Positions 8,056-53,919 are shown, counted from the first letter of the stretch. The stretch: DNA of 64,000 nucleotides from a virus (IMGVR_UViG_3300037424_000495:64001-128000); one strand, 5' to 3'. A program made the numbers and translations. Notes: a model not told the origin generated them from the sequence alone.

Positions 8056-8610
8056 ATGTCGTCTATCAAATCCGTACTAGAAGCACTCCGCACTGAACGT
8101 GAATACCGACGACGCCGATGGGGACACCGGCAGCCAGATGGTTCGATGATTGAAACTCCACATTCAATTGCGGATTTCATACTTTATATGCAAGACTACT
8201 ATCATGAAGCACGCCACCAATTGGTACGCGAACCTGGAATCACTAACACACTTAATACGTTACGTAAACTTATTGCACTCGGCTTTGCTTGTCTCGAACA
8301 ACATTACGGTTGTGGTCCCGTTGGTCATAAAAGACATGGTTATCCAATGTCTTTTGATGAATTGTATGCGGCATTCTTAACAGAAACAATAATCGAGCAT
8401 CCTAACACTGATTTCAGCACATTCATGTTTAAAATTAACCTTAGAATCGAAAACGCAGCCTTTAAAGCCGTTCGCATGGATTCAATAGATGCACTTCACA
8501 ATATCTACGCCGCTGTCCTACTAGGTATTGAATGTTTCAATAAATTTGGCATTGAATCCCGCGATCTAACACAACCCATCATCAATGCCCGCGATGGATT
8601 ACCTGCTTAG
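8056..8610 (+). CDS. Hypothetical helical protein (possibly MazG/dUTPase-like fold)
   Basis: EREYRRRRWG...LRKLIALGFACLEQH; fold call tentative. Confidence 0.5.
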   Translation: MSSIKSVLEALRTEREYRRRRWGHRQPDGSMIETPHSIADFILYMQDYYHEARHQLVREPGITNTLNTLRKLIALGFACLEQHYGCGPVGHKRHGYPMSFDELYAAFLTETIIEHPNTDFSTFMFKINLRIENAAFKAVRMDSIDALHNIYAAVLLGIECFNKFGIESRDLTQPIINARDGLPA

Positions 8611-8615
8611 ACTCT

Positions 8616-8975
8616 ATGAAGATTTGCATCATATATTCTAAACGAGTTCCCAAATGGTCCGTTAAGCTTGCTGAGTGTTTCCTTTCTTGGCTCGCACAAA
8701 ATCAAACGCTTAACCACAGTCTGCAAGTTTATCTACTCTCAACTAACCATATTAAAACATGCAAGGGACCGGCATGGGGCTTCTTTTCTCCCGGATGTCG
8801 GCCAACCATTGCCATCGCTTGCAAGAGGCCAGGGCTATTTAGTCTGCTTGACACGCTGGCTCACGAGTGGTGTGAATATGAAAAGTGGCGAGATGGTAAA
8901 GTCCGCAATCACCGTGGGTTGCAAAATCGCGTAGACGCACTGATTCAGCGCTTTCACTTGGAGATTGAGAAATGA
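8616..8975 (+). CDS. Hypothetical protein, possible zincin-like
   Basis: LDTLAHEWCEY is only a partial HExxH match. Confidence 0.45.
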   Translation: MKICIIYSKRVPKWSVKLAECFLSWLAQNQTLNHSLQVYLLSTNHIKTCKGPAWGFFSPGCRPTIAIACKRPGLFSLLDTLAHEWCEYEKWRDGKVRNHRGLQNRVDALIQRFHLEIEK

Positions 8976-9475
8976 CAAATACTGCACTCGTGGAACGTCT
9001 CTACGAACTGGCAACAAAACTCTGGTTTCGCTTTGTCAATGCACCCGGTGGCCACCCTGGTATTCCGGGGCCGGCAGGTGGTAATGAACCGTGGGATGCG
9101 ACTACAAGCACCCTCGAAGGTGCTGTCAGGACATTGGAAGAAGTTTTAGCTCAACCTGAACAATCAGCTTTAAATATACTTCGTCGCCTTGACGATGCTG
9201 ATGCTTTCCAAGTTGACACGGATTTGCTAAATGTTCAAGAGCATGACAAATTGAAAAAGATTCAAGGCGACGCCGAAAAATTACTAGAAAACACCAAGAA
9301 CATACCAGACCCGATCCAGACCCTCCGCGACCTATTTGACGCCGGCGGCCTGGACGATCACTTTTACCGTATCCGCGACAGCGAAGGTCAGGGGTGGGAA
9401 GGTCCGCGCATGTTAAAATGGGGCAAAGCTTGTGAAAATGCGCATAAATTGATGGACAACTCCAATAATTCGTAG
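8972..9475 (+). CDS. Hypothetical protein
   Basis: ATGA overlap, in operon chain. Confidence 0.6.
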   Translation: MTNTALVERLYELATKLWFRFVNAPGGHPGIPGPAGGNEPWDATTSTLEGAVRTLEEVLAQPEQSALNILRRLDDADAFQVDTDLLNVQEHDKLKKIQGDAEKLLENTKNIPDPIQTLRDLFDAGGLDDHFYRIRDSEGQGWEGPRMLKWGKACENAHKLMDNSNNS

Positions 9476-9508
9476 CCACATTGATTCAACTGTAGAGGAG
9501 AACTACCC

Positions 9509-9763
9509 ATGAAGATCGTTATACAACGCCTGTTCACCTATATTACTGGGGCACTTGCCCTCGCCATTGTAGCAGCATCCGCTGTCTCTGCTTTAATGTA
9601 TGCAGTTTTACACCACTCGGAGACGCTACGAAATCTTGCTTCATCGACGCTTTCGGGCATCGGTATGGCGGTTGGCGGTTGTCTCGGGAGTGCATTGATC
9701 CTCCGCTTCAAAGCAGCCCGCAAATTCCTCAAAAACATTTTAAACGAAATCAATACAAAATAA
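9509..9763 (+). CDS. Two-TM membrane protein
   Basis: GAGGAG RBS; two hydrophobic segments. Confidence 0.6.
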   Translation: MKIVIQRLFTYITGALALAIVAASAVSALMYAVLHHSETLRNLASSTLSGIGMAVGGCLGSALILRFKAARKFLKNILNEINTK

Positions 9764-11168: not shown

Positions 11169-11420
11169 ATGCAAGAGCTAGTAACTATCGCCATTTGCGC
11201 CTTTGTGTTAGCGTTCTGTTATTACATGCTGGATAAAGACGACCGTGAAGGCGTCCGTTTAATCGGTAGCGTTGTACTTATGGTCATAGCCTTCGCCATG
11301 TTATGCTATTCCGTCGAACGTCTACTATCCCCACAAGAACCAACACTCGCACCGCCAAAAGCTACTGTAACTAATCCGAACGTCATTGAAGTCCCATTCG
11401 AGTACGAGATTAAACAATGA
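11169..11420 (+). CDS. Two-TM membrane protein
   Basis: GGAG RBS; two hydrophobic segments. Confidence 0.6.
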   Translation: MQELVTIAICAFVLAFCYYMLDKDDREGVRLIGSVVLMVIAFAMLCYSVERLLSPQEPTLAPPKATVTNPNVIEVPFEYEIKQ

Positions 11421-11473
11421 TAGACAGCCTCGGCGACAGAATGAAAAGCACGTTACGCGGAGATCACTAAACT

Positions 11474-11746
11474 ATGGGAAAGCGTAAGCCCGAAAGATAC
11501 AGTGACCGCTGTTTAGACGACACTCCCCGCCATCTTAAGCGTGGCAAGCAAGCTAAAAGATTCGGCTTTCAAGAATGGTCACATTTCTATCAAATATGGT
11601 TACCGCCACGTTGGTTTGCAACAGAAAAAGGACGCAACCAAGCTCTGGAAGATTGTAAAAGAAAGGAAATTACACGCAGACGATCCCACACGCTATCCCT
11701 CATACCACGTTACCGATTACGAACAAAAGCATCCGATCAGACCTAA
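11474..11746 (+). CDS. Small basic hypothetical protein
   Basis: GGAG RBS; K/R-rich. Confidence 0.5.
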   Translation: MGKRKPERYSDRCLDDTPRHLKRGKQAKRFGFQEWSHFYQIWLPPRWFATEKGRNQALEDCKRKEITRRRSHTLSLIPRYRLRTKASDQT

Positions 11747-11816
11747 GTTCAAAGGACAGACTCAAGCGCGCCTTTACACAAAACTTAGAAACCAATACAA
11801 AACCCAAAGAAGCAAT

Positions 11817-12149
11817 ATGACAACCGCCTCCCTCACACACGGGCCAATTGGCACCTACGGTCCAAACGACAGCGCCTATATCAACAAACTAATTCGCGAA
11901 GCGGCTCAATTGCTCGTCAATGCGACCTATATATTCTGTGAAGGCCATTACCCGCACTCGAACGCCCGCGATATACCGGCCAATCACCCTCTCTGCCTGG
12001 CGTTGGCTGCTTTAGCGGAAGTTGATCAAGAGACAGCACGCTTTGCCAATGAACTTCCTTGGTCACCGTTATTCGCGCCTCACCGACCAACCGACGACGC
12101 TAAGAATCGATGGAATAAACCAGCACCTTTTCCCAGAGTACGACAATGA
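11817..12149 (+). CDS. Hypothetical protein
   Basis: Likely start ATG 11817 inside the longer track ORF. Confidence 0.45.
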   Translation: MTTASLTHGPIGTYGPNDSAYINKLIREAAQLLVNATYIFCEGHYPHSNARDIPANHPLCLALAALAEVDQETARFANELPWSPLFAPHRPTDDAKNRWNKPAPFPRVRQ

Positions 12150-12425
12150 CACGCACGCACCTTTTTAACCGCATCATTACCGCCATTGCTTTGATTCTTT
12201 TAGCTGTGATCATAGGCAACTGGCTTTCCAAACCGCCAGTGACGGCTGCACCAACTCAAGTGCAAACAAATAGACGCTAAATCAAATGAAATGAAACAAC
12301 AAGAAGAATCCCATAATCTATTAGCTGGTGCGCCCGTAACCGCTTATTTCCACCCACGAAATACAACAATGGCCTGCGGAAGGATTAGATTAAATGCGAG
12401 CACTAAATCTTCAAGGAGAAACAAT

Positions 12426-12656
12426 ATGAACTCTTGGTGGTTAGATACTTGTCTTATCGGCTCTTGTGGTTTGACAATACTTGTCTTTGTAGGCATCCCG
12501 ATCTACGAACATCCAAAGCTAGCGGCTGTCATTGCTGCGGCTATCGGCAGTTGCATCATTGCATCCTTGTTAATTGGGCTACTGTGGCGAGGCGTCCCTA
12601 AACTGTGGTCAACAGTTAAACAATTGTTTCAAATTCAGTCAAAACATGACTTTTAA
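12426..12656 (+). CDS. Two-TM membrane protein
   Basis: AAGGAG RBS before ATG 12426. Confidence 0.6.
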   Translation: MNSWWLDTCLIGSCGLTILVFVGIPIYEHPKLAAVIAAAIGSCIIASLLIGLLWRGVPKLWSTVKQLFQIQSKHDF

Positions 12657-12817
12657 CGCCAACGGTGCCGAATGAGCGGGATGAGACAATTCATTTATAT
12701 CAACAAACGATCTAAACCGCTTGAAAAGTGGAAAGATATTTCCTGTAAGACACTTAATTTTACTGTGACGATAATTAGTGTTGCAATTCTCATCTTTTTA
12801 GTCAGCTTGATTTTAAA

Positions 12818-13135
12818 ATGTCTCGTATAAACATGAATAGTCCGCCCGAAGAATCATTCCGTAAGTACATAAATATCACAACTAATCCAGTAGCCGCTGC
12901 TATATTGGTACTCGCTGAAACTCTAAATAAACCCGAGACAATCCAACCAATTGTTCCATCTGTTCCATCTGATCCCGATTCACTTTCAGTCCGGGAAGCC
13001 GCGATCCGCCTGCATCTAACCAGCCGTCAAATCTATCAATTAGTCCTATCAGGACGAATGAAATGTTTTCGCGATCCCAGCATCCGTATACCGAGAGACG
13101 AAATCAATCGTTATGAACGCGATAGTGTTATCTGA
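12818..13135 (+). CDS. HTH_17/excisionase-like DNA-binding protein
   Basis: LSVREAAIRLHLTSRQIYQLVLSGRMK...IRIP. Confidence 0.75.
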   Translation: MSRINMNSPPEESFRKYINITTNPVAAAILVLAETLNKPETIQPIVPSVPSDPDSLSVREAAIRLHLTSRQIYQLVLSGRMKCFRDPSIRIPRDEINRYERDSVI

Positions 13136-15151: not shown

Positions 15152-15760
15152 ATGAATAAATGTGGAGCACCTATGAGAGGCACAACAATAAACACACACC
15201 TTGAAGAACTGTCCGACGAGCAGTTAATGGATGTACTGCAAAATGGTAATCAGGATGCCTTCACCATCCTTTATAGGAGGTATTACCCCAAAGTAAAGGG
15301 GAATGTCTGCAATCGACTTCGTGGTGAGTTAGCCGCCGACGCTGACGACATTGTTCAATCCGTTTTTCTTACTCTACATCGCTGTACCGAACGCTTTATT
15401 CGCAACAGTTTTGTATCCAGTTTTCTTTTGGCGACCACACACCGTCTCATTGTAAATCACTTGGAGCACGCACACAGGCAGAAACGGGATGTACGACGCC
15501 AAGGTTACGTCATCCATGAGAAATTGGCTGACAATCGTGCCTCGGAAAAGGCCGAAGCCGCCGAAGCCGCCGCCCATTTCCTTGAACGACTCACGCCGGC
15601 AGAGGCCGAAATCGTGCGTCTAATCGACATTGAAAGCAATACAGCCAAGGAAGCAGCCGTAATTATTAACGCCCCCATGACCACGGCTCAATGGCGATAC
15701 CGAAAAGCCTGGGAACATATCCGAGCACTCGCCGCACAGGAAGCCGTCGTCCCTGCATGA
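15152..15760 (+). CDS. ECF-type (sigma-70 group 4) RNA polymerase sigma factor
   Basis: LSDEQLM...GNQDAFTILYRRY, ADDIVQSVFL (region 2), EAAVIINAPMTTAQWRY (region 4). Confidence 0.85.
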   Translation: MNKCGAPMRGTTINTHLEELSDEQLMDVLQNGNQDAFTILYRRYYPKVKGNVCNRLRGELAADADDIVQSVFLTLHRCTERFIRNSFVSSFLLATTHRLIVNHLEHAHRQKRDVRRQGYVIHEKLADNRASEKAEAAEAAAHFLERLTPAEAEIVRLIDIESNTAKEAAVIINAPMTTAQWRYRKAWEHIRALAAQEAVVPA

Positions 15761-16297: not shown

Positions 16298-16322
16298 CTT
16301 ACGTCAATACTGAAGTATAGTT

Positions 16323-18046: not shown

Positions 18047-18520
18047 ATGCCAAGCGTCTTAAAACCGTGGGTCGAACAATTGGGTCTACGCCATCAAGGC
18101 GTACTTATGGCCTGTGTACGTGGCTGTGATAGTGTACCCAAAGAAGACCCGACGAAAGCCCTAGCCCGTTGCTTTCGTGCAACAATTCTTCAATCATTCG
18201 ATCCAAACCCCACAAGCTTCATCGAAAACGTAGACGATACTGTTCTACGTGAGCGGATGGTCGCCGTCTTAAAGAATCACGATCATTACCCAATCCACTA
18301 TCTTTTGCACCTTATGCACGGGGCCGAAATCATTGGCTATAAATGGCCTGGTTCGGCTGCTATCTGCTGGCAATGGTTCTATGAAAAATTAGCAGCCTGT
18401 TTCCATTTACACCCGGAAACAGAAGAAGAATTAGATACTCGATTAGGAGCGTGTGAAGCAAAATTTGCTCAACAAGCCGCTTCTGCTTATGATCTACTAC
18501 ACCAGCAACTACACCAATGA
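18047..18520 (+). CDS. Hypothetical protein
   Basis: GGAGG RBS before ATG 18047. Confidence 0.65.
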   Translation: MPSVLKPWVEQLGLRHQGVLMACVRGCDSVPKEDPTKALARCFRATILQSFDPNPTSFIENVDDTVLRERMVAVLKNHDHYPIHYLLHLMHGAEIIGYKWPGSAAICWQWFYEKLAACFHLHPETEEELDTRLGACEAKFAQQAASAYDLLHQQLHQ

Positions 18521-18625
18521 AACAATAAGAATGAAACAACAAGAAAGTTGCAAAGACGCATCGCCCACATTGAAGCACAACTATTTGAATTGTACCGTGC
18601 AGCCTCAATTTTACACAAATATAAT

Positions 18626-18653: not shown

Positions 18654-18660
18654 TTAATTA

Positions 18661-18780
18661 GTGAAGGTGACTTGTCACCTTGAAGGTGAGAACAGCTAAG
18701 AACTTCGAGAGTCTTGCAGCACTCACCAAAGTTTCATTTCAACTCGCCTCCCTGGCTTCCGAGCCGGGGAGGCATATTTT
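18661..18780 (+). ncRNA. Putative tracrRNA
   Basis: GTTTCATTTCAA (18731-18742) is the perfect complement of repeat nt 19-30; hairpins at 18664-18681 and 18686-18727; bounded by promoter and terminator-like hairpin. Confidence 0.75.
18746..18780 (+). terminator. Intrinsic terminator-like hairpin
   Basis: 12-bp stem GCCTCCCTGGCT/AGCCGGGGAGGC, TCCG loop, then ATATTTT. Confidence 0.6.
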
Positions 18781-18792
18781 GAAAGGTGTTGT

Positions 18793-20085
18793 ATGAAAAA
18801 GACTACAAATAAAGGCGAAATAAGCCTCGCCCGGTTTGAAATACTGGGTTTGGACAAAGAAACTCGACTCCGCTGGAAAAGTCTCGCCGATACAGTTAAA
18901 CGCATGACGAATTGTTTCTATCGCACTTGGCTTGTCTGCCACACGCAAGCAGGAAATGATATAAAAATCCGTGAATACATTGCAGCCATCGGTCAGTGGC
19001 ATAAGAACGGTGCCAAAGGTACTAAACCGCAATGTGAGGTGAAATGCTTGACGCCTGAAATAACGGCGTCTATCCGTAAAGCACTTGCAAATTATTCCAC
19101 CGTCAACACACGTTGTCTTGATCTTGCAATGCAACTTTTAGGGCGACGCTTAACGACATTAAAAGCCAGTAAAAGCAATTATCCACGCTGGATACGGATA
19201 CTTGCTGATGAAGGCGAGTATCCTAATTCAAGTTCACCGCTACCGATTCCATTTGATAAGAAGAATGCCGAATTGCTACCGCCCATTGACAACGAAGATT
19301 TCCAATTCAAACTCCGAATCGATAGACTCAACCGCCCCGGCAAAATGGCAACCAGTACGCTGGATACTTTTAAATTAAAAACCCGAGGACGACAAGTTGC
19401 CAGTCAAACCGCCATTCTCTGGAAAATTGCGTCCGGGGAGTATGATTTTTGCGGTTCAAATCTTGTCTATAAAGAGGCTAATAATAAATGGTTTTTACAC
19501 ATTTGTTACCGACAGCCCGCCACAACTACTGCGGCATTAAATCAAGATAAAATCGCATTCCTACATGCAGGATTAAAACAACCCTGGCGACTACGAATTG
19601 CCGGCTATAAATTTTCAGTTGGCGGCCCGACCGGCCAGCACATTGCATATATACGCCGGCAACTATTAACAAGCCGCTGGGGGCGACAGGAAAATACACG
19701 CTATACAAGTTCCTCTGTCCGTGGGCATGGCGTAGACCGTGCTATGAAACCACTCCATTTGCCACGTTTAAAAATGCGTTGGCGGGATGCTGTAAAAACC
19801 TGTAACCAACAAATGGTCGCCAACGTGATTAGACTGTGTCAAGAAAAACAATGTGGCCAATTAGTTTATTTTCAACCCGCCGAATCGAGACGTGACACAC
19901 GCTTCTTGCATCTCGCAGGCAAAATTCCAGACCGCCATGACAGTACGAGTTGGGATTGGTATCAAGTACAAAACATGTTGTCTATTAAATGTAAAGCGGC
20001 TGGAATTGAGTTAATTGTACATAAAATTGGCGAGAAAAACATCGATTTTTCAGATAAAAAATCACCACAACTCGCAGCCGCATAA
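18793..20085 (+). CDS. Cas12f/TnpB-like type V effector, predicted nuclease-dead and C-terminally truncated
   Basis: Adjacent to array; RuvC-I-like IAFLHAGLKQP (H258 at the Asp position), RuvC-II-like CGQLVYFQP (F360 at the Glu position), WDWYQVQNML..KCKAAGI, then a stop before the Zn finger and RuvC-III. Confidence 0.8.
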   Translation: MKKTTNKGEISLARFEILGLDKETRLRWKSLADTVKRMTNCFYRTWLVCHTQAGNDIKIREYIAAIGQWHKNGAKGTKPQCEVKCLTPEITASIRKALANYSTVNTRCLDLAMQLLGRRLTTLKASKSNYPRWIRILADEGEYPNSSSPLPIPFDKKNAELLPPIDNEDFQFKLRIDRLNRPGKMATSTLDTFKLKTRGRQVASQTAILWKIASGEYDFCGSNLVYKEANNKWFLHICYRQPATTTAALNQDKIAFLHAGLKQPWRLRIAGYKFSVGGPTGQHIAYIRRQLLTSRWGRQENTRYTSSSVRGHGVDRAMKPLHLPRLKMRWRDAVKTCNQQMVANVIRLCQEKQCGQLVYFQPAESRRDTRFLHLAGKIPDRHDSTSWDWYQVQNMLSIKCKAAGIELIVHKIGEKNIDFSDKKSPQLAAA

Positions 20086-20102: not shown

Positions 20103-21118
20103 ATTGTAGTTGACCCTAATTTGAAATGAAACAACAAGTCTAAGCGACTACATTGCAAAACGCTATGTATTGTAGTTGACCCTAATTTGAAATGAAACAA
20201 CAAGTGTATATTGATAATAGAGGGTGTTAAAGGCATTGTAGTTGACCCTAATTTGAAATGAAACAACAAGGACAGAGGGCGTAAGCGGCGGATGCTTTCA
20301 ATTGTAGTTGACCCTAATTTGAAATGAAACAACAAGATATACAGTAAAAAAATTTATAGTAGAGAATTGTAGTTGACCCTAATTTGAAATGAAACAACAA
20401 GTGTATATTGATAATAGAGGGTGTTAAAGGCATTGTAGTTGACCCTAATTTGAAATGAAACAACAAGGACAGAGGGCGTAAGCGGCGGATGCTTTCAATT
20501 GTAGTTGACCCTAATTTGAAATGAAACAACAAGATTTAAGCAACCGTCAAACCACGAATATAATTGTAGTTGATCCTAATTTGAAATGAAACAACAAGGC
20601 GAAGCCTTAACACGACTAGCGGCCCTAGATTGTAGTTGATCCTAATTTGAAATGAAACAACAAGGACTGGATTGCGTGCGTCTTTGAGGCCGTCATTGTA
20701 GTTGACCCTAATTTGAAATGAAACAACAAGAAACTTCTCGGTCGCGTGCGTCAAGAGTTATTGTAGTTGATCCTAATTTGAAATGAAACAACAAGTAACT
20801 GTTGGACAACCACGGCGCTATCTGGATTGTAGTTGATCCTAATTTGAAATGAAACAACAAGTACAGGAGACTTGAATCATGGTGGCTTCACATTGTAGTT
20901 GATCCTAATTTGAAATGAAACAACAAGGTGGCCCTTCTTTGTCCGCAGTAACGGATTGTAGTTGATCCTAATTTGAAATGAAACAACAAGGACTGCATTA
21001 CAGTCGGCTTTTCTATTTTGATTGTAGTTGATCCTAATTTGAAATGGAACAACAAGATGCAAAACTACATACGATTGGTACAAATATCACAGTTGACCCT
21101 AATTTGAAATGAACAACG
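20103..21118 (+). CRISPR. CRISPR array: 16 repeats (36 bp, last degenerate), 15 spacers of 27-30 bp
   Basis: Repeat ATTGTAGTTGA(C/T)CCTAATTTGAAATGAAACAACAAG; first repeat 17 bp after the cas stop codon. Confidence 0.98.
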
Positions 21119-21223
21119 TCTGTTCCCTTTGTCACCGCCCATTGAAAACAAAACGTAAATTTTGTGCTGACTGCGGCGCACCTAAGTTACGTCATTTTAC
21201 TGAACGCTTAAAGGAGACTTTAA

Positions 21224-21712
21224 ATGAATGTGAAAGAAATAAAACAACAAAGTTACAAGCAGCAGTTACTCGAATGCTTGGCACTCCGTCAACAGGGTGG
21301 GAAGAGCGCATACAAACGCGCTAAGATTCTTCTATTTGTCTACAACGACAATGATTTTCGTCTCGACCACAATAACTTTGACGACGACAAATTGGCTAAT
21401 ATCCTCGATACATACGTCGAAGATTTAGCGATACGTTTTTGGCATCTTAAAGCTCTACTTGAATACTTTCCCGACGAGCACCAATGGGCCGAAGGCCGGC
21501 TACGCTCCATGCTCGAAGAAATGCAAACCGCACAAGATGTTCAGCAAACAAAACCTATTCAACGGCGTAAAACAGCAACAGTCGCGGAGGTCGAAGCACT
21601 TAAAAAGCAACTTACACACGAAAAAGCCCGCTGCCAACGCCTGTTAAAAGAAAACATAGCGTTACGTGAAGAAAACCAACAACTCAAACAGCGTCTTAAA
21701 AAAGCGGCTTAA
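21224..21712 (+). CDS. Coiled-coil hypothetical protein
   Basis: AAGGAG RBS; C-terminal heptads. Confidence 0.65.
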   Translation: MNVKEIKQQSYKQQLLECLALRQQGGKSAYKRAKILLFVYNDNDFRLDHNNFDDDKLANILDTYVEDLAIRFWHLKALLEYFPDEHQWAEGRLRSMLEEMQTAQDVQQTKPIQRRKTATVAEVEALKKQLTHEKARCQRLLKENIALREENQQLKQRLKKAA

Positions 21713-50014: not shown

Positions 50015-50917
50015 ATGCCACTAATTTGTTATAAATCTAAATCATTTCGTGCGGACACTCAAACACGTATCGATCAGGCTAATCAAATAATTGCAGAGTA
50101 CCAAGCACAAGGTTTCAAATTGACGCTTCGCCAAATATACTACCAGTTTGTTAGCCGCGATTTGATTCCAAATACGGTGCAATCATATAAGAATCTCGGT
50201 GATGTCGTGAATGATGGTCGTTTAGCCGGTTTGATTGATTGGGGTGCAATTGAAGATCGCACACGAAATTTGCAGAGCAGTCCACATTGGTCGAGTCCCC
50301 GGGCCATTGTTCGAGCTTGTGCCGATCAATTTGCTGTAGATTTATGGGCGACGCAGGAAAATTATGTGGAAACCTGGATTGAAAAAGAGGCGCTTGTTGG
50401 AGTAATTGAAGGTGTTTGCTCTGAATTAGATGTACCCTATTTTGCTTGTCGAGGGTACACGAGTCAGAGTGAAATGTGGGGCGCAGCGCAACGCTTGCTT
50501 GAACGAGAACAACGTGGTAAGAGGACAACGATTATTCATTTAGGCGACCACGATCCAAGCGGCATTGATATGTCACGGGACATTCAAGATCGATTGGAAA
50601 TGTTTGGATCATCGGCTGTGATTCGCCGTATCGCATTGAATTACGATCAAATTGAGAATTATAATCCGCCACCGAATCCAGCGAAGACAACTGATTCGCG
50701 GTATGAAAGTTATCGTGTGTTACATGGCGAAGAAAGTTGGGAACTTGACGCTTTGGAACCGCACACGATTGTGGAGTTAATTCGTGGCGAGATTGAATCA
50801 CATATTGATCGTGACACTTGGGACGATGCTTTACAACAGCAGGATTTAGGCCGCCAGCGTTTAAATCTTGTGTCACAAAAGTGGCACGATGTTATCGGAT
50901 ATTTGGGCGAGAATTAA
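50015..50917 (+). CDS. Topo VI-A/Spo11-like winged-helix + Toprim protein (Mini-A-like)
   Basis: TLRQIYYQF, WIEKEAL, CRGYTS, HLGDHDPSG, WELDALEP. Confidence 0.75.
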   Translation: MPLICYKSKSFRADTQTRIDQANQIIAEYQAQGFKLTLRQIYYQFVSRDLIPNTVQSYKNLGDVVNDGRLAGLIDWGAIEDRTRNLQSSPHWSSPRAIVRACADQFAVDLWATQENYVETWIEKEALVGVIEGVCSELDVPYFACRGYTSQSEMWGAAQRLLEREQRGKRTTIIHLGDHDPSGIDMSRDIQDRLEMFGSSAVIRRIALNYDQIENYNPPPNPAKTTDSRYESYRVLHGEESWELDALEPHTIVELIRGEIESHIDRDTWDDALQQQDLGRQRLNLVSQKWHDVIGYLGEN

Positions 50918-51628: not shown

Positions 51629-51928
51629 ATGTTCATTCATGTAGAAGTAAACTGGCAAGACTTTCGCGGTGACGTTGGGGAAGATATTGCTTCTATTGAA
51701 AGTCGGTTTAAGAGTGGTTTTTGGCCTAACAAAGTAGAAATATATAATTATAAGAAATTCTCTTGTCTGCTATCCAGTTGGTGTGAAGTGGCTTTAGAGT
51801 TCGATTTATGGACCGATGCAGTGCAAAATGCTGCCTATGAATTGCTAAATAGGTGGAGTCGCACTAGTAGTTTTCACGTAAGTTATACCGAAATCCAGCC
51901 GCCAGTATTGATTGCAACGCCCTTATGA
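51629..51928 (+). CDS. Hypothetical protein
   Basis: + strand chain. Confidence 0.5.
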   Translation: MFIHVEVNWQDFRGDVGEDIASIESRFKSGFWPNKVEIYNYKKFSCLLSSWCEVALEFDLWTDAVQNAAYELLNRWSRTSSFHVSYTEIQPPVLIATPL

Positions 51929-52137
51929 AACAACTTAATCCGTCGATGATACCCGAGATTCGATCCGCAAGTCATCCGCATCCAGTTGATGAGGTGCGTG
52001 CTTTATCAGCACAAGAAATAATGGAGCGAGCGGGCGTGACGAATATGTTAAAAGGAAGGATACTTCGTTTAAAGTTGTTTATACATACATACGCACCGGA
52101 GAAACAAGCAAATGCCCAAACCAGAAAACATTCATGA
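51925..52137 (+). CDS. Small hypothetical protein
   Basis: ATGA overlap. Confidence 0.45.
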   Translation: MKQLNPSMIPEIRSASHPHPVDEVRALSAQEIMERAGVTNMLKGRILRLKLFIHTYAPEKQANAQTRKHS

Positions 52138-52405
52138 GTATTTTAGTCTTAGTTACGCGAGTTGGCTAGTGTTGCCACGAGTTATTTTGGAAGCAATGCC
52201 GGAAGACTGGCAGCGTCAATTCGTTGAAATGTTGGATCAGGTGAATGAGACATTTGATTGGTGCCCACAGGATTTAAGCTTTCAAGTAATCGGCCGGCAG
52301 CGTGGACGGCTAACATCTTTACCTGAAGTTTTATGTAGTTATCGGCACCCGGTGCGCAAGGACATTGAAGCGTTAAGATGCGACGGCAAAATATCTGGTC
52401 GCTAA
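52112..52405 (+). CDS. Hypothetical protein
   Basis: FSLSYASWLVLPRVILEAMPEDWQ. Confidence 0.6.
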   Translation: MPKPENIHEYFSLSYASWLVLPRVILEAMPEDWQRQFVEMLDQVNETFDWCPQDLSFQVIGRQRGRLTSLPEVLCSYRHPVRKDIEALRCDGKISGR

Positions 52406-52422
52406 ATATGTCTACCGTCAAT

Positions 52423-52458
52423 TTTGTAGTTGATCCTAGTTTGAAATGAAACAGCAAG
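52423..52458 (+). CRISPR. Solitary CRISPR repeat unit
   Basis: TTTGTAGTTGATCCTAGTTTGAAATGAAACAGCAAG; 33/36 identical to the GATCC array variant. Confidence 0.9.
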
Positions 52459-52473
52459 AAGGTTTAATCAACA

Positions 52474-53919
52474 ATGTTTTTACGCATTTGTAATCCTGGT
52501 GAAGCACCTGTTGAAGGTTACACGTTACTCGGTGTCAGTACAACTCGGAACTGCGGTATTGCCGGTACAATTGGGCAGTTTGGCAGCGGTGCAAAACATG
52601 CGATCAATGTGATTTTGCGGGCTGGCTTGAAAGTGATAATTTACTGTGGCCCGACGAAACTGGAATTTCTTACGTGTGACGACGAAATCAATGATGGCCT
52701 CACAACGAAGGCTGTCAAGCGTGTATTCTGTCGCATGGGTGGCACGTCTACGCGGACAATCGACTTAGGTTGGGTGCTTGATTTTGGTGCAATTGACTGG
52801 ACTGATCTTGGCATGGCGTTGCGAGAATTCATCAGTAATGCAATTGATCGCACAATTCGTCAGACAGGTGATTTTATTCCGGCGATGCGTGATGGTGATT
52901 TATCTGTCACTATGGTTGAAGATGAGAAACTGCGGGCGAAGACTGGGTACACCCAGGCGTTTATTCAGATCAATCCAGATGTGGAACAGTATCAACGGGA
53001 ATTATCACGGCGTTTTCTTCATTTTTCTGAACGTCCTGAGCAGGTTAAGCAATCACTTCTTCCGAAGGCAAATCGCAATTTGAACGGCAGTAAGGCCGCG
53101 ATGATTTATCGTGAAGGCGTATTTGTACGGGAGTTTAATGTCACCGATGCAAAATCGGTGTATGACTACAATTTTAGGGCAGATGAATTGCGAATTGATG
53201 AAAGTCGCAATAGCAGCGAATATGATGTGAAGGCTGCATGTGCAAAACTAATGCGAAAAGCAGCAGCTACCGAATTGGTGCCGGTTTTTAGAAGTCTCGT
53301 TGAAAAGGAAGAGATATTTGAAGCCGGACTAGACCCGTACTACATCTGTCCGTCATGGGAAACGCCGGGCGATGAACAGCAACAAAATTGGAAGCAGGCT
53401 TGGCAAACAGTGGCCGGTGATGCCGTGCTTTGCGGTCCGTCGGAAACGGTGATTGAATTTGTGGAGCATAAAGGTGTGGTAGCGAAGTCCATTAAGGTTG
53501 CGGCGTTGGTGGAAGTGGCCCGTCGCTTTGGAATTTTAACCGGCGATCAAGTATTGACCGACAATGAGCGCAAAGGTCGTGAAGTGCTTCCGGCTAGTGA
53601 TACAGCAATACAGGCTGTCCATACTGTGTGGAATTGGCTTGAGAAATTGCAGTTAATTAACGGGGCGACCATACCGCCGGTGGGTTGTTTTCGGGACGTG
53701 GTGAATTCAGGACAACGTCTTCTTGGTTACTGCGACGGTAAAGGCGTCTATCTGGCTGACGACCATGCTAGTGGCGGGGTGAATAAATTGCTTTTAAAAA
53801 CCGCACTGGAAGTATGTGTTCACTGGATCACAGGAGCGACAGATGGCAGCCGAGATGTGCAAGACTTTCTACTTCGGACGGTCATTGAGATCGTCACAGA
53901 GAATTGTTTGCTGAATTAG
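52474..53919 (+). CDS. GHKL-type ATPase with permuted motif order
   Basis: RICNPG and IGQFGSGAK at the N-terminus; LREFISNAID about 75 aa later. Confidence 0.7.
   Translation: MFLRICNPGEAPVEGYTLLGVSTTRNCGIAGTIGQFGSGAKHAINVILRAGLKVIIYCGPTKLEFLTCDDEINDGLTTKAVKRVFCRMGGTSTRTIDLGWVLDFGAIDWTDLGMALREFISNAIDRTIRQTGDFIPAMRDGDLSVTMVEDEKLRAKTGYTQAFIQINPDVEQYQRELSRRFLHFSERPEQVKQSLLPKANRNLNGSKAAMIYREGVFVREFNVTDAKSVYDYNFRADELRIDESRNSSEYDVKAACAKLMRKAAATELVPVFRSLVEKEEIFEAGLDPYYICPSWETPGDEQQQNWKQAWQTVAGDAVLCGPSETVIEFVEHKGVVAKSIKVAALVEVARRFGILTGDQVLTDNERKGREVLPASDTAIQAVHTVWNWLEKLQLINGATIPPVGCFRDVVNSGQRLLGYCDGKGVYLADDHASGGVNKLLLKTALEVCVHWITGATDGSRDVQDFLLRTVIEIVTENCLLN

Follow-up and report, generated by a model that had tools for sequence, protein, structure and literature searches.

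A copy of a phage's own CRISPR repeat before the start codon of a conserved gene, and its possible reading by a nuclease-dead Cas12f-like effector

The DNA analysed here, IMGVR_UViG_3300037424_000495:64001-128000 (64,000 nucleotides (nt); hereafter the window, from whose first base all positions are counted), comprises bases 64001-128000 of a 129,143-bp phage record in IMG/VR that is rated complete. Within it, a gap of 68 nt between two co-directional genes contains a solitary 36-nt copy of a repeat of the phage's own type V CRISPR (clustered regularly interspaced short palindromic repeat) array. The copy is identical to the array repeat at 33 of 36 positions, shares the strand of the array, lies 31.4 kb from it, and ends 15 nt before the ATG that opens the downstream gene, which encodes a conserved phage protein of 481 amino acids (Table 1). 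A preliminary description of the window had reported such a repeat with three mismatches, an intact core for pairing with the trans-activating CRISPR RNA (tracrRNA), the same strand and a distance of about 31 kb, and in all these respects it was confirmed. Very probably, this ectopic copy overwrote the -10 box of an ancestral promoter and thereby gave the leader of the downstream gene a complete CRISPR RNA (crRNA) handle.

The repeat copy and its landing site

The mismatches of the copy fall at repeat positions 1, 17 and 32, and no comparable match was obtained in 100 shuffles. The copy carries the T variant of the repeat (GATCC), which is also found in array units 8, 9 and 11-15. With up to 12 mismatches allowed, no other full copy was found beyond the array in the whole 129,143-bp genome. 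The word "solitary" is thus correct for full copies; exact 3' ends of the repeat also occur at 12287-12303 and 18530-18543. Both segments predicted to pair with the tracrRNA are intact in the copy. All three substitutions avoid the 16 tracr-paired positions, and one of them, an A-to-G change at 52454, lies within the 2-nt linker between the two segments. With long partners, the RNA duplex energies of the real units were -26 to -32 kcal/mol, versus a mean of -27 for shuffled sequences, and so did not distinguish the two. No Rfam family was found at 51800-52800.

The sequence behind the copy resembles a minimal array, in which a 28-nt "spacer" is followed by no more than the 6-nt start of a repeat, within the coding sequence. 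This stub, TTTGTA, is offset by 64 nt from the start of the copy; the period of the array is 63-66 nt. It exists because codon 6 of the downstream gene is TGT (Cys). Among 110 homologues, the sixth residue is Gln in 107, Lys in three and Cys in none, and three base changes are needed to obtain TGT from CAG. A sequence resembling a ribosome-binding site (RBS), AAGAAGG (52456-52462), spans the repeat/spacer junction, and an ATG at 52446, within the first pairing segment, opens an upstream open reading frame (ORF) of 15 codons that ends at 52493.

On its left side, the copy adjoins the remains of a promoter. The phage has a promoter family with the consensus TTGACT, 16 nt, TATAGT, and the 22 nt before the repeat belong to a member of this family, ranking 33rd of 258,252 when only the columns outside the repeat are scored. 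Under the full promoter matrix, the remnant is among the 13 sites of the genome that reach at least 12 bits, and it is the sole one of them without a -10 box. A TTGTAGT shared by promoter and repeat marks the point, inside the promoter spacer, at which the repeat starts, and repeat sequence now stands in place of the -10 box. An intact promoter of the family was found 69-83 nt before the homologous ATG in 13 of 38 distinct relatives, versus none of 38 coding control windows; the remnant starts 69 nt before the ATG at 52474. This arrangement suggests a conversion tract from an array unit, comprising the repeat, a 28-nt spacer and the start of the next repeat. The unit would have been transferred from the array by recombination or gene conversion, with the left junction at the TTGTAGT microhomology with the ancestral promoter and the right end at the 6-nt stub in codons 5-6. 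No good sigma-70-type promoter or terminator was found in the 68-nt gap. The copy had been placed in a 5' untranslated region; it does precede the ATG, but the site is actually a gap between co-directional genes without a working promoter.

Table 1 Features of the window and handle sites in related loci
Feature	Position	Strand	Remarks
Disrupted promoter-family member	52405-52436	+	-35-like ATGTCT, 16-nt spacer ending TTTTGTAG, -10 replaced by TTGATC
Solitary 36-nt CRISPR repeat	52423-52458	+	33/36 identity to array repeat; T variant
Pairing segment 1, 12-nt core	52441-52452	+	TTGAAATGAAAC, intact; complementary to tracr anti-repeat 18731-18742
Pairing segment 2	52455-52458	+	CAAG, intact; complementary to CTTG loop of tracr hairpin 1
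28-nt "spacer"	52459-52486	+	Last 15 leader nt, codons 1-4 and first base of codon 5
Repeat-start stub	52487-52492	+	TTTGTA, equal to first 6 nt of solitary copy; inside codons 5-6
Gene for 481-amino-acid conserved phage protein (P0002)	52474-53919	+	GHKL-like N-terminal part, zincin-like C-terminal domain
Source CRISPR array	20103-21121	+	15 repeats and degenerate terminal repeat
tracrRNA candidate	18658-18785	+	About 120 nt, behind promoter 18626-18654
Gene for 430-amino-acid nuclease-dead Cas12f-like effector (P0001)	18793-20085	+
Extracytoplasmic function (ECF) sigma factor gene	15152-15760	+	Upstream of effector
Exact 17-nt repeat 3' end (minimal handle)	12287-12303	+	ATG 12291 opens 121-codon membrane-protein ORF
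Two tandem 14-nt repeat 3' ends	18516-18543	+	13/14 and 14/14; just upstream of tracr promoter
Handle site of array-less locus L029	11354-11405
Handle site of array-less locus L031	11240-11300
Handle site of array-less locus L097	11345-11402
Handle site of array-less locus L034	10958-11015

The downstream protein has more than 849 homologues at 55-68% identity, and its family is widely distributed in phages of Planctomycetota. Since its N-terminus (MFL..NPG) is conserved in 20 homologues, the ATG at 52474 is the true start. The protein had no match in Pfam, and in PHROG it matched only families of unknown function. Three residues, E118, N122 and D125, are invariant in 20 homologues and form an N-box of the GHKL type (Bergerat fold; E-x3-N-x2-D). 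The structural model, with a predicted local distance difference test score (pLDDT) of 86, gave weak fold matches to Hsp90 (Foldseek E 1e-3) and to MORC2 (Z 5.1 over residues 1-280, VIA-align). Residues 362-478 appear to have a zincin-like fold of the Wss1/SPRTN/minigluzincin type (Z of about 7); the protein has no HExxH motif. The name "GHKL ATPase" of the preliminary description draws support from the invariant N-box, but not from Pfam, and the fold matches behind it are weak; judging from sequence and model, the protein is probably a GHKL ATPase. A Toprim/Topo VI-A-like gene lies near it, at 50015-50917. Upstream of the gap, a 97-amino-acid ORF (52112-52405), which was considered as a possible broken gene, matches only the C-terminal third of two PHROG families of 224-233 amino acids (phrog_3527 and phrog_33008), and no N-terminal part for it was found upstream.

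The CRISPR locus and its relatives

The array from which the copy derives consists of 15 near-identical 36-nt repeats (20103-21056) with spacers of 27-30 nt; a 16th repeat, at 21086, is degenerate. A block of about 173 nt (20169-20341) is duplicated 197 nt downstream (20366-20538) with 99% identity; it covers the spacers at 20205 and 20271, both of which consequently occur twice. Four of the 15 spacers start with GAC.

The tracrRNA candidate comprises a hairpin 1 with a CTTG loop, a GGTGAG/CTCACC stem, the anti-repeat and a terminator hairpin. This scaffold is kept in the seven loci compared, and both the anti-repeat and the loop of hairpin 1 are complementary to the 3' end of each locus's own repeat. 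The loop and the handle end covary, four kinds of pair being found (CTTG/CAAG, CCTGT/ACAGG, CCTAT/ATAGG and CCTAC/GTAGG) when 18664-18682 is compared with the equivalent segments of the loci L018, L029, L031, L097 and L098. Such covariation indicates a second tracr:crRNA pairing, which would resemble the split repeat:anti-repeat of Cas12f guides. In L098, conservation among the repeats is limited to the last 20 nt or so. From these two observations, the functional handle can be defined as the complement of the anti-repeat, a linker of 1-2 nt and the complement of the loop, and the rule of hairpin-loop complementarity also served to locate the crRNA handle of the genome G002. The array of L098 itself (11397-12860) has about 21 units; their repeats share one conserved 3' half but have 5' halves of two or three very different kinds, and short units (42-60 nt spacing) stand at both ends of the array.

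The effector encoded between the tracrRNA and the array belongs to a family of about 33 proteins, with relatives in metagenome-assembled genomes of Thermoguttaceae and other Planctomycetota and in phage contigs. It had no match in Pfam or PHROG. Its model (pLDDT 90) has a Cas12f fold, with a Foldseek E of 5e-22 to AsCas12f, and in profile comparisons it is closer to AsCas12f (E 5e-27) than to the solved dCas12f (E 2e-11). According to the profile alignment, the RuvC-I Asp is replaced by Arg or His and the RuvC-II Glu by a hydrophobic residue; the alignment stops short of the zinc-finger/RuvC-III part, and this C-terminal part is absent from the effector. The effector is therefore considered nuclease-dead. 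Cas1 was not found in this phage.

In seven of the eight loci that include upstream sequence, namely this phage (G000), L029, L031, L033/34, L097, L098 and L099, the dead Cas12f gene has an ECF sigma factor gene upstream. No sigma gene was seen near the effector of G001, a 364-kb phage with a 33% identical effector and three mini-arrays; this negative is weak because the same protein query, the sigma factor of the present phage, also missed the sigma genes of L029 and L031 that were later found by Pfam. The sigma genes of relatives lie at 8579-9253 (L029), 8686-9534 (L031) and 8737-9543 (L097), and some sigma proteins are long (268-282 amino acids) and could bear a C-terminal extension like that of the dCas12f-associated sigma-E. 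At 21086-21324, the start codon (ATG 21109) of a gene for a 71-amino-acid Zn-ribbon protein lies within the degenerate terminal repeat of the array; homologues of this protein follow the effector in the array-less relatives. This partner gene is followed by one for a coiled-coil protein of about 165 amino acids (21224-21712; 169 amino acids in L029).

The array-less relatives (L029, L031/L032, L097/L030 and L033/L034) have exactly one crRNA handle each, which overlaps or just follows the stop codon of the effector gene and stands 37-38 nt before the ATG of the partner gene. By sequence comparison, a handle just before a start codon is the basic layout of the family, in the order effector, handle and partner genes. 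The guides of L029 and L097 are identical at 13 of their first 15 nt, versus 15 of the remaining 23. In addition, one Thermoguttaceae genome has, 22 kb away from its complete locus, a second handle-plus-partner module with the last effector codons only (L127; G403:C1:1368871-1371890). This second match in G403 had been considered as a target and was rejected, being a paralogous module. Close relatives of the present phage were not found in scans of viral contigs with both proteins, one at a time; the exact repeat had no match in viral and metagenome contigs, and no DNA match was found among GenBank phages.

In addition to the full copy, partial units lie outside the array (Table 1). The exact 14-nt copy at 18530-18543 has, in a test for exact suffixes anchored at the repeat 3' end, an expectation of 0.003 per genome for a 14-mer. 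This test set the partial handles apart from shuffled sequence, which a gapped local-alignment scan by itself did not; in the latter, they scored 34 and 28, versus a shuffle maximum of 32. The tandem ends at 18516-18543 may be the remnant of an upstream array like that of G001. The latter phage has a solitary repeat of its own, with three mismatches, on the same strand as its arrays and 62 kb from them, followed by a 30-nt spacer and a 13-nt handle; one change falls in the pairing core, where a G-U wobble is kept. A bare 13-nt handle in G001 ends 8 nt before the ATG of a 114-codon ORF. Across the two complete phages, all five ectopic units are on the array strand and sense to local transcription, and each of the four partial units is an exact match that is anchored where handle and guide meet. 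In the solitary units of this phage, G001, L029, L031 and L097, the first bases of the guide echo the end of the handle (handle end/guide start, for example: ATAGG/ATAGG, GTAGG/TTAGG, ACTACAGG/ACTACAGG and CAAG/AAGG); array spacers do not show this.

Possible roles of the leader handle

We favour a role at the RNA level, to which we assign a probability of roughly 0.4. The proposed recombination would have produced a mini-array of a single unit, in which the ribosome-binding region and start codon of the gene itself form the "spacer". Read-through transcripts from upstream genes would hence include a complete crRNA handle that ends 15 nt before the ATG. The tracrRNA would then pair with the 12-nt core and the terminal CAAG of the leader, and dead Cas12f would load the tracr:leader duplex. 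The RBS-like AAGAAGG and the start codon would thereby take the position of the guide, so that translation of the ATPase-like gene may be blocked or the messenger RNA (mRNA) processed there, possibly with an mRNA-derived guide as a by-product. The family layout of effector, handle and partner genes would in this way be repeated at a second gene. We prefer this reading since it needs only base pairing that is supported by covariation and mirrors the core layout of the family; since handles directly precede start codons repeatedly across the family, an action on mRNA leaders is credible. Binding of tracrRNA or effector to this leader had also been proposed in the preliminary description. The prerequisites hold (both segments intact, sense orientation, an effector of the dead Cas12f type and an RBS-like sequence at the junction), but the recombination that apparently destroyed the gene's own promoter means that the element could be an accident.

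Several observations weigh against a function of the leader handle. The pairing to the tracrRNA is short, being only 12 plus 4 bp, and three substitutions would by chance miss 16 of 36 positions with a p of about 0.17. The closeness to the start codon is partly trivial, since dense coding confines surviving insertions to short gaps. In G001 the solitary repeat does not precede a gene but stands between convergent ones, and no homologue of the 481-amino-acid gene is detectable in that phage; the lack of close relatives in the contig scans adds to this. The loss of the gene's promoter resembles collateral damage, drift has altered the copy at 3 of 36 positions, in contrast to the near-identical array repeats, and the guide has no second target in the phage.

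The last of these points lead to the strongest competing explanation, an inert scar, which is plausible and nearly as likely as a function at the RNA level. A one-off recombination of an array unit with the promoter and leader of the gene would have left behind a repeat that is ignored even though it is transcribed, and the gene would now rely on read-through from upstream. The microhomology junction and the destroyed -10 box are as expected of such an event, nothing would maintain such units in a phage without Cas1, and conversion tracts that differed in length could have given the 3'-anchored fragments at 12287 and 18530. Against a scar stand the intact state of both tracr-pairing segments, the common strand and sense orientation of the five ectopic units in the two phages, and the exactness of the four partial units and their anchoring at the handle/guide junction; the layout is, moreover, the same as the conserved core of the family.

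A wider form of the RNA-level reading is more doubtful than either. In this form, the crRNA handle would by design be part of mRNA leaders in the sigma-linked dead Cas12f family of Planctomycetota phages and prophages, copies would have spread to other phage genes, and the tracrRNA with dead Cas12f would read the phage's own messengers as guides or gate their translation.

An improbable alternative is that the unit acts on DNA as a stand-alone guide. Its crRNA would direct dead Cas12f to the gene start, either for self-limitation of the type known as CRISPR interference or for silencing the homologue of rival phages; the phage's own copy would be protected, since the end of the repeat stands in the place of the target-adjacent motif (TAM). 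The form of the mini-array (repeat, 28 nt and repeat stub) and the wide distribution of the gene family, with its more than 849 homologues, are consistent with this. In L029, furthermore, the single guide has a 17/20 match at 9555-9574 on the minus strand, between the ECF sigma gene and the tracrRNA, with a chance expectation of about 0.3 genome-wide and about 2e-4 within 4 kb of the locus. The 10-nt seed of this guide recurs once more about 5 kb downstream (16313-16322, minus strand; within 7 kb). The 17/20 site is a possible autoregulatory target, and together with the recurring seed it is reminiscent of the guides by which dCas12f-sigmaE systems regulate themselves (PMC13472631). The windows of L097 and L034 showed no site of this kind.

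The search for targets in the present phage, which the preliminary description had suggested for the downstream "spacer", nevertheless speaks against a DNA-level guide. The solitary "spacer", the array spacers and the satellite guides, used whole and as 16-, 11- and 10-nt seeds, had only chance-level matches in the phage, and all guides had only chance matches in 0.6 Mb of related loci. The array had only marginal matches in 401 Planctomycetota genomes (E of about 0.005 per genome) and none in GenBank phages, and the two duplicated spacers had none in viral and metagenome contigs. In the effector gene (19474), the solitary "spacer" has a 22/34 match, which was rejected as a candidate; it only equals the best chance matches of other spacers and is TAM-distal. 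No protospacer, and with it no TAM, was found for any spacer searched. The sole perfect target of the guide is its own template, and the TAM-proximal 15 nt are leader sequence unlike that of any relative, so rival phages would not match the guide.

Two further explanations seem very unlikely. The sigma-linked dead Cas12f could start RNA-guided transcription here and so replace the lost -10 box, which would fit the ECF sigma gene that is syntenic with the effector in seven of eight loci. Known dCas12f-sigmaE complexes initiate transcription 45-48 bp downstream of a minimal 5'-G TAM (PMC13472631), and the present repeat does end in G. Taking this last G as the TAM, however, places the start at about 52504, 30 nt inside a coding sequence with a conserved N-terminus, and RNA from there could not encode the protein; moreover, guide matches upstream of 52410 were not found, and the tracrRNA here is separate, in contrast to the single guide of published systems. 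A decoy that soaks up tracrRNA or effector, own or competitor's, would accord with the intact handle and with solitary phage repeats that are known RNA anti-CRISPRs (Racr; PMC10651486), but this analogy, also drawn in the preliminary description, fits poorly, in that the repeat matches the phage's own array, was not found in the 401 sampled Planctomycetota genomes or in viral and metagenome collections, and has no promoter or terminator of its own, only a remnant without a -10 box.

Comparison with known systems and implications

The RNA-level role that we favour has its nearest parallel in Campylobacter jejuni Cas9, where pairing with tracrRNA turns cellular mRNAs into non-canonical crRNAs, the sequence next to the paired segment becoming the guide (Jiao et al. 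2021, PMC8224270); reprogramming of mRNA-derived non-canonical crRNAs has also been described for Cas12 (PMC11246509). In both the published and the present case, a sense stretch of mRNA is complementary to the tracr anti-repeat. The non-canonical crRNAs, however, arise from fortuitous partial matches and serve a type II nuclease, whereas a complete repeat of the phage's own array stands here in a leader, with a start codon 15 nt behind it, and belongs to a type V system that is nuclease-dead and whose layout recurs in a family. Loading of the effector is a prediction in the present case.

The effector and its locus resemble the dCas12f-sigmaE systems of RNA-guided transcription, beside which a CRISPR-array-associated dead Cas12f cluster has been mentioned (Hoffmann et al., Nature 2026, PMC13472631). 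Common to both are a C-terminally shortened Cas12f with a dead RuvC, a locus that includes an ECF sigma gene and a guide just downstream of the effector, and dispersed or discontinuous repeat units were also reported in the dCas12f-sigmaE work. The Planctomycetota-phage family differs by keeping a separate tracrRNA with two covarying pairing segments instead of a single guide RNA, by an effector sequence closer to AsCas12f than to the solved dCas12f, and by a site geometry that is at odds with transcription starting 46 bp from the TAM.

Type V-K CRISPR-associated transposons also have a lone repeat-spacer unit at a distance from their array, which serves a non-cutting, tracr-dependent Cas12; this delocalised atypical crRNA is directed to a homing site on the chromosome, and a target of that kind was not found in the present case. 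In crRNA-like regulators, among which are tracr-L and the scaRNA of Cas9, repeat units that stand alone or have degenerated likewise occur outside arrays, and their guides make Cas effectors regulate genes. Further examples are CreA of CreTA and the crlRNAs (bioRxiv 10.1101/2024.12.27.630466). The targets of these regulators are separate promoters with a protospacer-adjacent motif, to which the guides are complementary in part; the present guide differs in being the leader of the putatively regulated gene itself. Racr, finally, are RNA anti-CRISPRs from solitary phage repeat units (Camara-Wilpert et al. 2023, PMC10651486) and share with the present element the occurrence of a solitary CRISPR repeat in a viral genome; they are mimics of host repeats and small RNAs with expression signals of their own, in contrast to an own-array repeat inside an mRNA leader.

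Even as a scar, the solitary copy records a recombination between an array unit and a phage promoter. It also helped us to define, for a family not described before, the handle of two segments and the basic layout of the locus. The system is small, comprising a 120-nt RNA, a 430-amino-acid protein and a leader of 70 nt. Should the handle be used, this would be a natural instance of a CRISPR effector wired to the virus's own messenger RNA, and the tracrRNA with a Cas12f that only binds DNA would control, or draw guides from, a conserved replication-type gene. This would constitute a natural control circuit in which an mRNA serves as crRNA. It would extend the biology of dead Cas12f, so far that of sigma-E systems of Bacteroidota, to phages of Planctomycetota, and would show guide units leaving their arrays to become gene-linked regulators.

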